Positions 46,366 to 51,966 of a stretch of 64,000 nucleotides of DNA are shown piece by piece (positions within the stretch are counted from its first letter, which is position 1; every line of letters starts with the position of its first letter). A program made the position numbers and the translations under genes. Origin of the DNA: Candidatus Marinacidobacterales bacterium (GTDB taxonomy: Bacteria; Acidobacteriota; Vicinamibacteria; Marinacidobacterales; SMYC01); NCBI GenBank assembly GCA_965237955.1, contig OZ250169.1:1248001-1312000 (forward strand). The letters are read 5' to 3'. The notes beneath the pieces are model-generated. The model did no database searches, had not been told where the DNA came from, and saw nothing but the letters and a program-made list of their open reading frames with translations.

Positions 46366-46496
46366 GGTGGTCCTCTCCTAATCGTTTTCGTTGGCGATAA
46401 GGGCGAGGCGAGTGGATCCTACGATTGCGCTCTTGTATTTAGTCTACCAGGAAACGTGCCATGGTGGAATCACGGCCCGGAAGCGTGGGTAGTGTC

Positions 46497-47312
46497 CTAA
46501 TTTGCCGCCGCGACGAGATCCCGTAGTTCCAGGGGCTCATTCGCGATCCCCGCTTCCATCGCTGGTGTGACGCGAAGGCTCTTGTGGATGCGGCAGAAAT
46601 TGTAGTGCGCGAAGTGAAGGCTCACCGCTGCCTTCAAGTTCTCGACCTTTTTGCTGAAGGCGTTCGTGAGCCGGGTGAAGCGCCTCATCGACATTCGCAT
46701 GGTTAGATTCTGCCTCTCGACGTGCGACGTACATATACCCTTCGGGTTACCGACGATTTGCTCTGTACTGATGCTGGCGACCTTTGGTGGACTGTACCTA
46801 CCGGGGCCGACAGGCGTCGCTTCGAAGTGCTTTACGATTCGACCGTAATCAACATCTGAGCCGAAGCCTTGTTCAACGGCATCCACGTAGGCTTCCATCG
46901 CATCTGTAGACAGTTGCACGCGGCCTGCCAAGCGCGAAGCCAGATCACCAACAAAGGCTCGGGTGTTTGCGCCGTCGCGTTTTCCCACTCGATACGAAGG
47001 GACAAGCTTGCTGTCGGTATCGAGTGCAACATAGGTCCAGAAGTCACCATTCTGAGCTGGATCATCGGTAGGTCTCATGTGGCGCTGCTTCTTTCCGACG
47101 TAGCACCAGATCTCGTCCATTTGGAGGTGACGGCATTCGAGCCCGCGCATCTCCGAGTCCATGAATAGCGCTGAGATATCGCCGACCCGGACCATGAGGC
47201 GCATGATCGTGTCGCGATGAATGCCGGTCATGCGCTCGACCGAGCGGATCGAGCATCCTTCGACGAGCGCGGAAATGGCCGCCGTTCGCTTGTCAAGACT
47301 GAGCTTATTCAT
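46497..47312 (-). CDS. IS1-family transposase (single ORF)
   Basis: HTH EGCSIRSVERMTGI; MDEIWCYVGKK, STD, VERQNLTMR...RRFTRLTNAFSK, HYNF. Confidence 0.9.
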   Translation of the reverse strand: MNKLSLDKRTAAISALVEGCSIRSVERMTGIHRDTIMRLMVRVGDISALFMDSEMRGLECRHLQMDEIWCYVGKKQRHMRPTDDPAQNGDFWTYVALDTDSKLVPSYRVGKRDGANTRAFVGDLASRLAGRVQLSTDAMEAYVDAVEQGFGSDVDYGRIVKHFEATPVGPGRYSPPKVASISTEQIVGNPKGICTSHVERQNLTMRMSMRRFTRLTNAFSKKVENLKAAVSLHFAHYNFCRIHKSLRVTPAMEAGIANEPLELRDLVAAAN

Positions 47313-47352
47313 TCGCTTTCCCTCTCACTTCTATGCTACGTTCCTCTTCAGT

Positions 47353-47426
47353 TGGTGGAGCTGCTGGGAATCGAACCCACGTGGGGCAGGCTGTAAATAC
47401 CGCCCTGGGCACCAGCCCACAGCCCC
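47353..47426 (-). ncRNA. tRNA-like RNA with Ala/tmRNA-type acceptor stem, in the transposase leader
   Basis: GGGGCTG pairs with CAGCTCC (G3-U70), then ACCA; T-loop TTCGATT; short hairpin in place of the D-arm; non-canonical anticodon arm. Confidence 0.75.
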
Positions 47427-47435
47427 GAATAGACG

Positions 47436-47471
47436 AAGCCCTCCGAGGGTGTTGCCTCGGAGGGCTTTTTT
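47436..47471 (+). terminator. Intrinsic terminator-like hairpin, antisense to the transposase leader
   Basis: 13-bp perfect stem aagccctccgagg / cctcggagggctt with a T-run on the + strand. Confidence 0.6.
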
Positions 47472-47488
47472 GTCTCTCATTAAGTATT

Positions 47489-47516
47489 ATTATCTCCATC
47501 CTCAGCATTTTGTCAA
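47489..47516 (-). promoter_or_regulatory. Sigma-70-type promoter for the tRNA-like RNA and transposase
   Basis: TTGACA (47516-47511), 16-nt spacer, GATAAT in an AT-rich tract. Confidence 0.5.
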
Positions 47517-47606
47517 GGTAAAATAGAGACAACAAATGATAATATCGAGTTGTTTTATCCGCCACAAAGTGTTATCTTGTCGGCACAGAAAGAAGGGACC
47601 TATATT

Positions 47607-48386
47607 ATGGCCAACGAGACCGGGAAGCCTATTAGAAAGCGGAGCCCGAACCATCCAGCAATCAATCTCAAGATCGCGACCGCCAAGATCGAGCAAATTT
47701 ATGAGAACGAGAAGGGCCAACACTTTGTCCCGTCCGAGACGATTTTCAGTCACTGGGGGTACAACGCGAAAAGTAGCGCGGGCAATACAACTCTTGGGGC
47801 ATTGAAGCAGTTCGGGCTATTGGACGCCGGGAGCAAGGAAGGCCGCCCAGGAGAGTCTAAGCTCAGTGACCTAGCAATGGAGATTCTGCTGGACAAAGAT
47901 GGCAGTCTCGGGCACAGAGACGAAGCACTCAAGAAGGCAGCGATGAAACCTCCCCTGTACGCCAAGATTTTGGGGGATTCGGGCGGTAGCCTGCCATCCG
48001 ATAAGACGTTGTGCTATCAGTTGATTAGAGACCATGGGTTTTCAGAGAGTCGAGCGACGGATTTCATTAAAGAATTCCAATCCACTTTAGCCTTTGCAGG
48101 AATTACAGAAGACGATACACTACGCAATGGGAGTGAGGATGGTGAGGCTGCTTCTAGCGGCCCGCAACGCTCGCTAGATGAGAAAAACGCCCTGCCAAAT
48201 ACTTCCAAAGCGAGGCCAGGAATGAATCAGGATACATTCACTCTCGACGAGGGGCAGGTTGTGTTGCAGTGGCCGGCAAGCTTCAGTCCGGAGAACTACG
48301 AAGATCTAAAGGATTGGTTGGAGCTCATGGCAAGAAGAATGAAACGGGCTGTGCGCGAAGCCAAAGAAGAGACTAAACAGGAGTGA
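47607..48386 (+). CDS. Passenger protein of unknown function, probable winged-helix DNA-binding fold
   Basis: RSPNHPAINL...WGY...LGALKQFGLL; lower GC than host genes. Confidence 0.7.
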   Translation: MANETGKPIRKRSPNHPAINLKIATAKIEQIYENEKGQHFVPSETIFSHWGYNAKSSAGNTTLGALKQFGLLDAGSKEGRPGESKLSDLAMEILLDKDGSLGHRDEALKKAAMKPPLYAKILGDSGGSLPSDKTLCYQLIRDHGFSESRATDFIKEFQSTLAFAGITEDDTLRNGSEDGEAASSGPQRSLDEKNALPNTSKARPGMNQDTFTLDEGQVVLQWPASFSPENYEDLKDWLELMARRMKRAVREAKEETKQE

Positions 48387-48667
48387 ATGAGTTACCAATC
48401 TCTGAGTTCGAAAAGGCCATCCGTGAAACTCACGGTGCCGTTGCACGCCTAGACGTCAGGACACTCGTTGAGGAAACATTCCAAGGGGAAACCGTTTGGA
48501 CGGGCGAGGTGCTCGCCTTTGAACTCCAAGACCACCCGACCGCAACCCAGTGCTACGCATGGTCCGTTGGCGGTCGCGTAACTGCCGTTCTTCACGAAGG
48601 CCCTATCGACTCGCCCGAAGCTGCCGTCCGAGCAGCTATCGCTGCTGAACACCGAACGAAATCCTGA
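48383..48667 (+). CDS. Small hypothetical passenger protein
   Basis: GTGA overlap with the upstream gene; FQGETVWTGEV..F.L..HP...YAWS...SP.AAVRAAI; ends just before the right TIR. Confidence 0.75.
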   Translation: MNELPISEFEKAIRETHGAVARLDVRTLVEETFQGETVWTGEVLAFELQDHPTATQCYAWSVGGRVTAVLHEGPIDSPEAAVRAAIAAEHRTKS

Positions 48668-48717
48668 AGCGCCTCCGGTCAAATTAGGACACTACCGAAG
48701 CGTGGCGCGAGCACTGG

Positions 48718-48947: not shown

Positions 48948-50392
48948 GGAGGTGCCCCCACCATAGTTGAAGGTTCGAGGTGGTGGCGGCTCCTGACACA
49001 AGGTTTACCCGACTTTGGCGTGCTTGTCGAGCGCTTGATTCTCAGTGACCTCCGCTAACTTCGCTTCGAGGATCGGTAGCGATTGGTATCCAATGATACG
49101 ACGGAAATTTTTCTCCGTGGCGAGCAGAGCCGAAGCGGCCCATCTCAGAACCATCTTGCCATTGCGCCAGCGGGTGACGCGACGGGTACGACCTCGCGCA
49201 CCGCTGAAGCACGACTCGATGATGTTCGTCGATCCAAGGCAGCGTTTCAGAGATGCGGGGAGGTCGAGCTCGTCGATGGTGAACATCTCGTCGAGCCCCT
49301 CCCGGATGCTCTCCGCCGCCGAGGGGTAGTCGTCCTCGAGCCACTTCGCCTGTTGCTCCAACCGCGCTTTGCCCTTCTTTGCTGGGAGCTGCCAGGCCGA
49401 ACGCAGGCTCGCTTGCACTTGCGGCTTCAGCTCCTGCGGCAGATAACCGAGCACATTGCGCTCCTTGTGCTTCCTGCAACGCTGGACCTTGTTGTGGGTA
49501 CCGAACACAGCGTCGACGGCGACCCGTAGCGCCTTGGAGCCATCGATCACGAACAGCCGACACCGCTCTGGGCTCAGGCCTCGTTCGACCAGGTCCTCCA
49601 GCAGCGCCTTGCACACTATCTGGTTCTCCGATGCTCCATCCCGAAGCCCCAGAACATGCTTGTATCCCTCTGTATCTACGCCGATTGCCGCCAGCGCGTG
49701 GTGCTCGCCGAAGCGAATCCCGTCCAGGTACACGACCGCGATCTCCAGCTCGTCCAGCGGACGCTCCATCAGCCCCTGCAACTGCTCCGCGCTTGCTTCC
49801 ACGAACTCACGGCTCACCTCGCTCTTGCTAACCCCTACCGTCTCCGCCATCTCGGGAAGAACCGACGCGTACTTGCGCGTCGACACACCCAGCATCAGGA
49901 TTTCCCAGATGCGTTGGCTCAGCCGAGACGAGTTGTTCACCGCTTCGTAGGCAGGAATCGCAACCTCCCCTCCCTCTGCCTTTCCCTTACGCCGCAGACG
50001 TGGCCGGCTCACTCTCAACTTCCGCTCCGCAAGGCTTACTACGCCACCCTGCCGGCCGTGCCAGCGAACATCGCTACCCTTCTTCCCCGGGTGTTTCTCC
50101 CCAGCCACACTTTGGGCTGACAGATCCAAGACCGCTTCGATCGTCGCTCGGCCAGCAACGTCGATCACTTCGTCGATCGCTATCTCGGTTCGCTCAATCG
50201 CATCCAAGAACGGCAACAGAGCTTGCCCCTTCGAGCTCAGTATCTCTCGAAGCTTCTTCCTGTTCTTCGCATCGATGATTTGGTAATTTGACATCGTGGT
50301 GGCTCCTTTCTTTTTCCTTCACAGCCGGATTCTATCGAACCCGGCCTTAGGAGCCGCCACTCCTAACCTTCAACTATCTCAGGGGCATCTCC
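48948..50392 (-). mobile_element. IS256-family element
   Basis: TIR ggaggtgcccc..atagttgaaggtt / aaccttcaactat..ggggcatctcc; 8-bp TSD TGCGCGCG (48940-48947, 50393-50400). Confidence 0.93.
49005..50294 (-). CDS. IS256 transposase
   Basis: GVSTR, VYLDG, DLVERGL, VIDG, QRCRKHK, STNIIES. Confidence 0.94.
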   Translation of the reverse strand: MSNYQIIDAKNRKKLREILSSKGQALLPFLDAIERTEIAIDEVIDVAGRATIEAVLDLSAQSVAGEKHPGKKGSDVRWHGRQGGVVSLAERKLRVSRPRLRRKGKAEGGEVAIPAYEAVNNSSRLSQRIWEILMLGVSTRKYASVLPEMAETVGVSKSEVSREFVEASAEQLQGLMERPLDELEIAVVYLDGIRFGEHHALAAIGVDTEGYKHVLGLRDGASENQIVCKALLEDLVERGLSPERCRLFVIDGSKALRVAVDAVFGTHNKVQRCRKHKERNVLGYLPQELKPQVQASLRSAWQLPAKKGKARLEQQAKWLEDDYPSAAESIREGLDEMFTIDELDLPASLKRCLGSTNIIESCFSGARGRTRRVTRWRNGKMVLRWAASALLATEKNFRRIIGYQSLPILEAKLAEVTENQALDKHAKVG

Positions 50393-51880: not shown

Positions 51881-51966
51881 TGGTGCCGAAGGGGGGATTT
51901 GAACCCCCACTCCCCGAAGGAAACTGCGCCCTGAACGCAGCGCGTCTGCCGTTCCGCCACTTCGGC
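51881..51966 (-). tRNA. tRNA-Leu (CAG)
   Basis: Cloverleaf with long variable arm; anticodon arm ctgcg-ttCAGgg-cgcag; GTTCAAATC; encoded CCA. Confidence 0.97.

Follow-up and report, generated by a model that had tools for sequence, protein, structure and literature searches.

Insertion sequences are thought to carry little besides a transposase. In classical IS1, output of that enzyme is limited by a programmed −1 frameshift (InsA / InsAB′), and members of the IS1 family have terminal inverted repeats starting GGT and duplicate 8–9 bp of their target. Small RNAs are known from other mobile DNA, among them phage-borne suppressor tRNAs that accompany recoded phage genes, the bridge RNA of IS110 and the omega RNA of IS200/605. 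Among unusual tRNAs, Mukai et al. (Nucleic Acids Res 2017; PMC5389517) described allo-tRNAs and irregular tRNAs of Acidobacteria, some of them with a G3:U70 pair. As described there, allo-tRNAs divide a 12-bp acceptor branch 8/4 or 9/3 and have a long variable arm, and some of the odd G3:U70 tRNAs decode in E. coli, a statement that a review repeats (PMC7609411). Here we describe a 74-nt tRNA-like gene carried by an IS1-family insertion sequence in a stretch of 64,000 nucleotides from a Candidatus Marinacidobacterales bacterium (the whole stretch is called “the window”). That this is a real, conserved gene carried by the insertion sequence is confirmed by comparison with its relatives. With confidence that stands about even, we further propose that tRNA-processing enzymes excise the RNA, that it probably carries alanine, and that it probably decodes the lone conserved rare GUA codon (Val160) of the element’s own transposase.

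The gene lies on the minus strand at 47353–47426, with the letters quoted for it in a preliminary description of this DNA, inside an element of 2,209 bp (46488–48696). Perfect 17-bp terminal inverted repeats bound the element, GGTAGTGTCCTAATTTG on the left (46488–46504, plus strand, overlapping the transposase stop codon) and CAAATTAGGACACTACC on the right (48680–48696, plus strand), and the 8-bp target-site duplication GAAGCGTG flanks it on both sides (46480–46487 and 48697–48704, plus strand); repeats and duplication are those of an IS1-family element. The end sequence past the transposase stop (…AAATTAGGACACTACC) reappears inverted 2.2 kb away, behind a small open reading frame (ORF). In order, the element holds the transposase (minus strand), a 40-nt spacer, the tRNA-like gene (minus strand), a 14-bp hairpin, a promoter (minus strand) and the divergent ORF_A and ORF_B; its G+C content is 54%, compared with 60% in the window. 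Because the inverted repeats and the duplication enclose the RNA, it is an internal gene of the insertion sequence, and neither a chromosomal gene hit by one nor an attachment-site remnant. The same enclosure ruled out a leftover from an island attachment site at the nearby tRNA-Leu gene.

Related elements have the same construction. Two loci of one other genome (L084 and L085) share a stretch of exactly 2,418 bp at 100% identity; it runs from GGTAGTGT to ACACTACC and takes in the RNA. Perfect end repeats and 8-bp duplications bracket the RNA in L084, L085, L092–L095, L098, L110 and L113, and 8-bp duplications of a like kind flank L085, L086, L092–L095, L098, L110, L113 and other relatives. 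In a DNA search of 61 related genomes there were two extended matches, G015 and G021. G015 has the RNA and the same transposase leader; an alignment of 942 nt between the window genome (G000) and G015, which starts 3 nt ahead of the RNA and reaches the element end, has 94% identity, and within it the RNA diverges more than the coding part, with pair 6:67 showing a compensated change. In G021 the promoter and the hairpin are present, but the RNA is cut off after its T arm and followed by an inverted tRNA-Sec-like gene (L010:1545–1760). A second tRNA-Sec-like copy lies 1.5 kb from this one, and both copies are followed by similar GGCCGTCA(A/T)T(C/G)AACGTGG, as if another element had inserted.

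The window RNA has a 7-bp acceptor stem with G3:U70, a 5-bp D-like hairpin with a UGGU loop, a 6-bp stem closing the 10-nt loop UAUUUACAGC, a T arm, A73 and CCA. In common with tRNAs it has the 7-bp acceptor, a 5-bp T stem with a TTCGA-type loop, the discriminator and the CCA. Standard detectors, which had been suggested as a check, gave a divided answer: ARAGORN called a 74-nt tRNA at exactly 47353–47426, but only by forcing it into a tRNA-Cys(ACA) cloverleaf whose D stem has 3 bp and which contains mismatches, whereas the Rfam tRNA model (RF00005) returned nothing at its gathering score for these positions and listed only a tRNA-Leu at 51884–51966. The best family in a permissive Rfam scan was transfer-messenger RNA (tmRNA; RF00023), which scored 32.6–41.1 bits under a cut-off of 47. 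At 32.6 bits the acceptor and the T arm alone aligned, 326 model positions being replaced by 35 nt.

The preliminary description had seen in the RNA a mimic of tmRNA. This holds for the alanine-type acceptor with its G3:U70 and for the T arm, but the RNA has an anticodon-type arm and nothing else of tmRNA, and it shares the acceptor GGGGCTG/CAGCTCC, followed by ACCA, letter for letter with the host tRNA-Ala(GGC). The accompanying remark that there is no tag ORF was correct: ARAGORN called no tmRNA, and the 74 nt have neither a tag frame nor pseudoknots, in keeping with the RF00023 score. The host’s own tmRNA lies elsewhere in the genome (191 bits, tag ADNQLALAA, acceptor GGGGGCG/CGCCTCC); the acceptor and T arm of our RNA differ from it, which ruled out a deletion derivative of host tmRNA. 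Cutting at UACA is a specificity of MazF-type toxin. The RNA might in principle rescue ribosomes as tmRNA does, or serve as a nuclease decoy or sensor whose UACA loop is bait for such a toxin, and we give this little credence. Its best Rfam match would fit, as would the odd tRNAs that PMC5389517 notes near toxin-antitoxin genes. However, tag frame and pseudoknots are absent, the tmRNA score is under the cut-off, the element’s proteins include no toxin or defence family, and a fixed GTA codon in the transposase, described below, would be left unexplained.

Folded as a single sequence, the window RNA was just mildly more stable than shuffled sequences (z −2.06; 6 of 200 shuffles folded as well), and support for the fold comes from covariation among relatives. 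Model R1, made from three sequences, matched 20 distinct RNAs. In this set 92.5% of cells were paired, compared with 68.5% in shuffles, and 17 of 23 pairs varied on both sides; the covariation score was 0.521 versus 0.125 when shuffled, and none of 500 shuffles scored as high. Pairing reached 99.3% of cells for the acceptor stem and 98.0% for the T stem. In a further set of 14 RNAs that had not gone into model R2, 92.0% of cells were paired and 17 of 23 pairs again varied on both sides; both alignments, being fitted to the model, lean toward structure. When partners in the set of 20 were slid by 1–3 columns, 50–61% of cells were paired, which argues that the fold signal is not an artefact of model fitting. 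The shared anatomy is a 7-bp acceptor followed directly by a 3–5-bp hairpin with a UGGU-type loop, a 4–7-bp stem with a loop of about 10 nt, a variable region of 0–3 nt, a T arm, A73, and CCA or other letters.

These data decide whether a tRNA was merely captured once. A pseudo-tRNA that was captured, decays and has no function would agree with the failure of the Rfam tRNA model and with the existence of related elements that have no RNA, but it sits badly with covariation in two sets, with invariant identity pairs, with occurrence in many phyla and with recently moved copies. We consider decay of this kind extremely improbable, and the covariation in the sets of 20 and 14 rules out a one-off capture, the outcome by which the preliminary description would have been undone. 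Its main claim, a structured tRNA-like RNA tied to an IS1-family transposase, is upheld by the covariation in homologous elements.

Searching with ORF_B, a companion of this transposase group, gave 80 genome-contig loci (117 relatives among 145 candidate stretches) and a metagenome set limited to the best 80 of 307 ORF_B relatives. With model R2, the host genome has one copy, the window gene (84.5 bits), and the next match is tRNA-Ala(GGC) at 40.5 bits. Among the 80 genome-contig loci, 20 carry RNAs that score at least 41 bits (21 RNAs in all); among the 80 metagenome loci, 11 carry RNAs that score at least 44.9 bits (12 in all), mostly in the layout of the window. The genome-contig loci come from Acidobacteriota, Myxococcota, Chloroflexota, Planctomycetota, Verrucomicrobiota, Pseudomonadota, Gemmatimonadota and other phyla. 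ORF_A and ORF_B both stand beside the RNA in G021, G126, G139 and G320. In a sample of 150 genomes of the phylum there were 5 matches at E ≤ 1e-6, namely 3 RNAs of this kind and 2 ordinary tRNAs; none of the 3 has a transposase within 1.5 kb, and 2 of them have other loop triplets.

Small tRNA-like genes of the G3:U70 alanine type stand alone (L163:1501–1573, minus strand; L164:1501–1572, plus; L165:1501–1570, plus), with the loops CUUUACA, CUUUGGA and CUCUAAA, respectively, and with no transposase within 1.5 kb; ARAGORN reads the last of them as a tRNA with a CUA anticodon. Elsewhere, alanine-type genes with unlike loop triplets stand in tandem (L139:2641–2793, plus strand, GAC and UAC; L170:177–331, minus strand, CGG and UAC).

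The AlaRS (alanyl-tRNA synthetase) identity set comprises G3:U70, G1-C72, G2-C71, G4-C69 and A73. In the set of 20 RNAs, G1-C72, G2-C71 and G3:U70 are invariant (20/20), G4-C69 is kept in 19 of 20 and pairs 5–7 vary freely; the first three are likewise invariant in the further set (14/14). Of the identity elements to which the preliminary description had drawn attention, G3:U70 is borne out in 34 of 34 RNAs, and the features that the synthetase would recognise, G3:U70 and A73 on a regular acceptor helix, are present and invariant. That this set does not vary favours charging of the RNA by AlaRS.

The RNA ends 40 nt ahead of the transposase ATG (47312), as had been reported. The spacer between them (47313–47352, minus strand) contains an A/U-rich TAGCAT motif and a GAGAGGG ribosome-binding site, and, by eye, a like TA...T motif follows the RNA by 8–14 nt in relatives. 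Upstream, a 14-bp G+C-rich hairpin stands in the 5′ leader of the RNA (47435–47468), and before it is a sigma-70-like promoter, TTGACA-16-GATAAT (47489–47516, minus strand; 11 of 12 positions match), in agreement with the TTGACA promoter noted earlier. Relatives have a hairpin at the same place, commonly with an A-rich run ahead of it, and like promoters could be seen by eye upstream in L032, L090, L095 and L097. Read on the plus strand, the window hairpin is terminator-like, with a T run, and resembles a terminator for antisense transcription through the transposase toward ORF_A. In most relatives the RNA stands about 15–45 nt ahead of the ATG (40 nt in the window, 15 nt in L090, 27–35 nt in L171, L187, L168, L176 and L175), too tightly for a full promoter between them. 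The promoter, the leader hairpin, this spacing and the A/U-rich motif past the RNA together suggest that RNA and transposase share one transcript.

Placement in the transposase leader, as first described, is accurate for the window, but the RNA is more fully an internal gene of a 2.2-kb element with two further ORFs, and in some relatives it stands elsewhere: 250–370 nt from the transposase in L087, L088, L105, L139, L157 and L158, where the transposase has its own promoter-like site, and past ORF_B in L129. Two other readings of the region were dropped. Taking the loop TTTACA for a −35 box and the T loop for its −10 fails by eye on an unconserved TT and on a −10 without its key A, and pairing of the loop with the start-codon region fits the window only and fails in G015.

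The transcript layout could also mean that the RNA has no task of its own. As a processing signal in cis, its tRNA shape would draw RNase P and a 3′ endonuclease, and the transposase mRNA, left with a 5′ monophosphate, would decay fast. The close spacing, the single conserved promoter upstream of the RNA and the A/U-rich motif after it all fit such a signal, which we regard as unlikely while taking it seriously. RNase P has no need of the G3:U70 set, and a signal in cis would leave that invariant set unexplained, together with the invariant UACA and the fixed GTA codon; it also fits poorly the loci in which the RNA is 250–370 nt off or beyond ORF_B.

We turn to the loop. The host tRNA-Val(UAC) has the anticodon loop TTTACAC, and the 10-nt loop of the window RNA includes TTTACAG. 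TACA is present in 16 of 20 RNAs and in 8 of 12 metagenome RNAs, while the letter ahead of it varies, and the full valine 7-mer TTTACAC occurs in 5 of 20 RNA loops. The complementary codon, GTA, makes up 9% of valine codons in long frames of the host. The window transposase has a single GTA, at codon 160 (46833–46835, minus strand), where it is complementary to the UAC of the RNA; there is one GTA in ORF_B and none in ORF_A.

In an alignment of 92 distinct transposases, one of whose rows (L041) is from an unpublished genome (G209), codon 160 is column 173. This column is GTA in 20 of 22 elements with a short alanine-type RNA nearby, in 6 of 6 that had been classed beforehand as carrying a second, Sec-like kind of tRNA-like gene, and in 16 of 64 without an assigned tRNA-like gene; overall, 26 of 28 with such a gene compare with 16 of 64 without. 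After-the-fact reassignment of L153 and L227, which have a Sec-like RNA with UACA, and of L226 changes the counts to 29 of 30 versus 13 of 62. A class-blind script found GTA together with a TACA tRNA-like gene in 24 rows, GTA alone in 18, the gene alone in 4 and neither in 46; at least one of the 4 (L041) is an ordinary tRNA-Val, and the 18 include several rows that lie on short contigs or escaped the strict scan. The exceptions among RNA-bearing rows are L113 (GTC) and L243 (ATC); in L243 the RNA has a UAG-type loop, as does that of L129, and the neighbouring transposase codon of L243 is CTA. Codons on either side of column 173 vary synonymously in the same rows (ATC/ATT, AAG/AAA, GAT/GAC). 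Four columns of the RNA-bearing set use one codon for at least 85% of a conserved residue, and column 173 alone does so with a rare codon.

Transposases showed no overall enrichment of GTA (0.082 of valine codons with the RNA, 0.104 without) and ORF_B had no fixed GTA (at most 6 of 19 valines in RNA-bearing rows). Codon 172 of the transposase (46797–46799, minus strand; the arginine of GPGRY) shows a pattern of its own, rare AGG being kept in 22 of 30 rows with a tRNA-like gene and in 4 of 62 without, and we found no RNA matching AGG. Two other decodings were set aside. A stop-codon anticodon (UUA or CUA before CA) is at odds with a triplet whose first letter may be U, C, A or G while U-A-C-A is fixed; a four- or five-base reading (GUAA, GUAAA) finds a complementary fourth letter only in some members of the family, and in the window the shifted frames end after 42 and 10 codons.

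The match between loop and codon could instead reflect pairing off the ribosome, in which the 10-nt loop would bind GUAAAG (codons 160–161) of the transposase mRNA and block or cleave it. CUUUAC, the loop core met most often, could pair with GUAAAG over its whole length, and lysine follows Val160 in all rows with a tRNA-like gene. Beyond UAC, however, pairing is not kept, since CAUAC (G015), CCUAC (L084 and L032) and UCUAC (L092 and L098) face the same GUAAAG, and three conserved base pairs would probably be too few off the ribosome. We consider antisense action distinctly improbable. Three base pairs are meaningful on the ribosome only, and for this reason we take the RNA to be a decoder of codon 160. 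The invariant UAC+A, equal to the core of a valine anticodon loop, and the one fixed GUA codon are what suggest a codon-anticodon relation, and they call into question the earlier judgement that the RNA is unlikely to decode. That judgement had cited the lack of a 7-nt anticodon loop, which is right for the 10-nt best fold but passes over the resemblance of the TTTACAG within it to the loop of tRNA-Val(UAC).

Under decoding of codon 160, transcription from a single promoter would run through the leader hairpin, the tRNA-like RNA and the transposase frame. Cuts by RNase P and a 3′ endonuclease would free the RNA and thereby also set where the transposase mRNA starts; the RNA would receive alanine from AlaRS and, once charged, would compete with host tRNA-Val(UAC) at codon 160. 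Depending on the amount of the RNA and its charging, the transposase might then be made faster, more slowly, or with alanine in place of valine, and the private tRNA-codon pair would cap transposase output. Beyond the conservation of sequence features, each of these steps is a prediction from those features.

Several observations weigh against this proposal. The tRNA model of Rfam does not accept the RNA; the linker to the D arm is absent (column 8 pairs with column 31); and in place of a 7-nt anticodon loop there are 9–13 nt in the model-fitted alignment and 10 nt in the best fold of the window RNA. In G015, L084, L032, L088, L092 and L098, UAC is preceded by a letter other than the U (U33) of tRNAs. 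Some relatives have the RNA outside the transposase leader. GTA is kept at column 173 in 13–16 elements in which no RNA was found, and an independent-pairs test, with just 5 pairs, gave about 2.5 pairs in the same direction and about 0 in the opposite one (median p 0.25; the opposite count was 1 in three of 200 random pairings). RNA-bearing rows are scattered over deep branches of a quick tree. The host encodes its own tRNA-Val(UAC), and other lineages have V, I, T, H, Q, N, M or A at residue 160, so that alanine there may change nothing. The odd loop length, the missing U33, the host tRNA and the tolerance at residue 160 weigh against decoding that is efficient or consequential.

A stronger form of the proposal is programmed missense recoding, in which an alanine-charged RNA would read GUA and give a set fraction of transposase with Ala160 next to the invariant Lys161. 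Only the alanine isoform, or only the valine isoform, would then be active, and the second RNA class would perhaps insert serine. We regard recoding as doubtful. If true, it would replace the classical IS1 frameshift switch and tie transposition to the charging state of the cell, with a private odd tRNA and a fixed rare codon across many IS1-type elements, whose anticodons differ.

If decoding of codon 160 proves correct, the tRNA-like gene and the fixed rare codon would let a transposon use host translation to meter or alter its enzyme, which would be new. The “irregular tRNAs” of soil bacteria, whose link to mobile DNA has so far been a loose one (PMC5389517), would gain a function as well. 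With one RNA, one codon and one protein, the pair is small, lends itself to direct tests and may be of use as an orthogonal tRNA-codon pair.

The remaining parts of the element are protein-coding. The transposase (46497–47312, minus strand; ATG at 47312) is one open frame of 271 amino acids. It matched Pfam DDE_Tnp_IS1 at 32.3 bits (cut-off 24.1) over residues 193–227 only, and NCBIfam transpos_IS1 at 59.8 bits, under the cut-off of 100; it is 94% identical in nucleotides to the G015 copy. ORF_A (47607–48386, plus strand; 259 amino acids) is a divergent passenger gene found by profile in relatives, and ORF_B (48383–48667, plus strand; 94 amino acids) is a conserved companion of this transposase group. 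For both, Pfam, NCBIfam, PADLOC and PHROGs gave no family match, and no relative of solved structure was found; atlas leads were unnamed clusters and a weak DUF5343 hint for ORF_A, and unnamed clusters only for ORF_B. A profile of 5 ORF_A homologues matched 18 of the 80 related loci. Relatives of ORF_B numbered 117 in genome contigs and 307 in metagenome contigs, and an IS1-like transposase accompanied ORF_B in 51 of the 80 metagenome loci and in most of the genome-contig loci listed, in the latter in one of two layouts, divergent as in the window or straight after the transposase.

Other proteins fill the slot of ORF_A in relatives. These are a DUF5343 protein in L084 (2965–3681, minus strand; 30.3 bits) and P63C-domain proteins in L090 (1836–3065, plus strand) and L094 (2766–3860, minus strand), the last with a Cro/CI-type helix-turn-helix as well; they are divergent from the RNA or lie upstream of it in its own direction. 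Mobile DNA is plentiful in the stretch around the window element: 300 bp past its right end lies a transposase of Mutator/IS256 type (Pfam Transposase_mut, 128 bits; 49005–50294, minus strand), and a tRNA-Leu(CAG) gene (51881–51966, minus strand) lies 3 kb from the element.

The second class of tRNA-like gene in related IS1-type elements is about 95 nt long, with a body like that of tRNA-Sec or allo-tRNA, a long variable arm and the same UACA loop motif. These genes start with GGAAGGTG or GGAGGGTG and were found in L030 (1242–1337, minus strand), L031 (2401–2496, plus), L116 (3098–3193, plus), L137 (3090–3185, plus), L100 (3029–3123, plus), L112 (4470–4564, minus), L118 (4369–4462, minus), L161 (2223–2317, plus) and L153 (4964–5052, plus). 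In an IS1-like subgroup that has no ORF_B and whose promoter contains a GCTTGAGCGCTCAAGC palindrome, tRNA-like genes also stand upstream of the transposase, at about 80–100 nt in L047 (2393–2466, minus) and L048 (2408–2498, minus), at about 250 nt in L046 (1182–1252, plus) and at about 1 kb in L036 (3323–3392, minus). Those of L047 and L048 may lie just beyond the element end.

How, then, does this RNA compare with described systems? The earlier statement that no IS1 system of this kind had been described agrees with our full-text literature searches on tRNA-like or tmRNA-like RNA with IS1, transposase or insertion sequence and on IS1 passenger genes, which found none. The passages of PMC5389517 that we consulted describe no IS1 element and no matching transposase codon, and in one supplementary table CTTTACA occurs once, outside any anticodon loop. 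Like the allo-tRNAs of that paper, our RNA is an odd tRNA-shaped gene from the same phyla, and, as in some of the genes described there, it has a G3:U70 pair; unlike allo-tRNAs, the window RNA has a 7-bp acceptor, a 5-bp T stem and a variable region of 0–3 nt. The RNA adds a new form to the irregular tRNAs that have been tied to mobile DNA. With tRNA-Ala it shares an acceptor equal to that of host tRNA-Ala(GGC), the G3:U70 of all 34 RNAs, the T arm and the encoded CCA, and it differs from tRNA-Ala in having no alanine anticodon, a D hairpin set directly on the acceptor, a 10-nt loop and no match to the Rfam tRNA model. Its loop holds the U-UAC-A of tRNA-Val(UAC), in 5 of 20 loops as the whole TTTACAC, but with three extra letters and under an alanine-type acceptor with G3:U70. 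With the tRNA-like domain of tmRNA it has in common the G3:U70 acceptor, the T arm and the ACCA end, and it is set apart by its length of 74 nt, by the lack of a tag frame and pseudoknots and by its score of 32.6–41.1 bits against a cut-off of 47. As with phage suppressor tRNAs, bridge RNA and omega RNA, a mobile element would here supply a small RNA acting on its own genes, though the codon is a sense codon and not a stop codon, and the RNA is not a DNA guide. In common with the classical IS1 frameshift, this would be a translational device in the transposase frame that sets the amount of full, active enzyme; the window element, however, has one open frame and no frameshift, and its device would be a private tRNA-codon pair.

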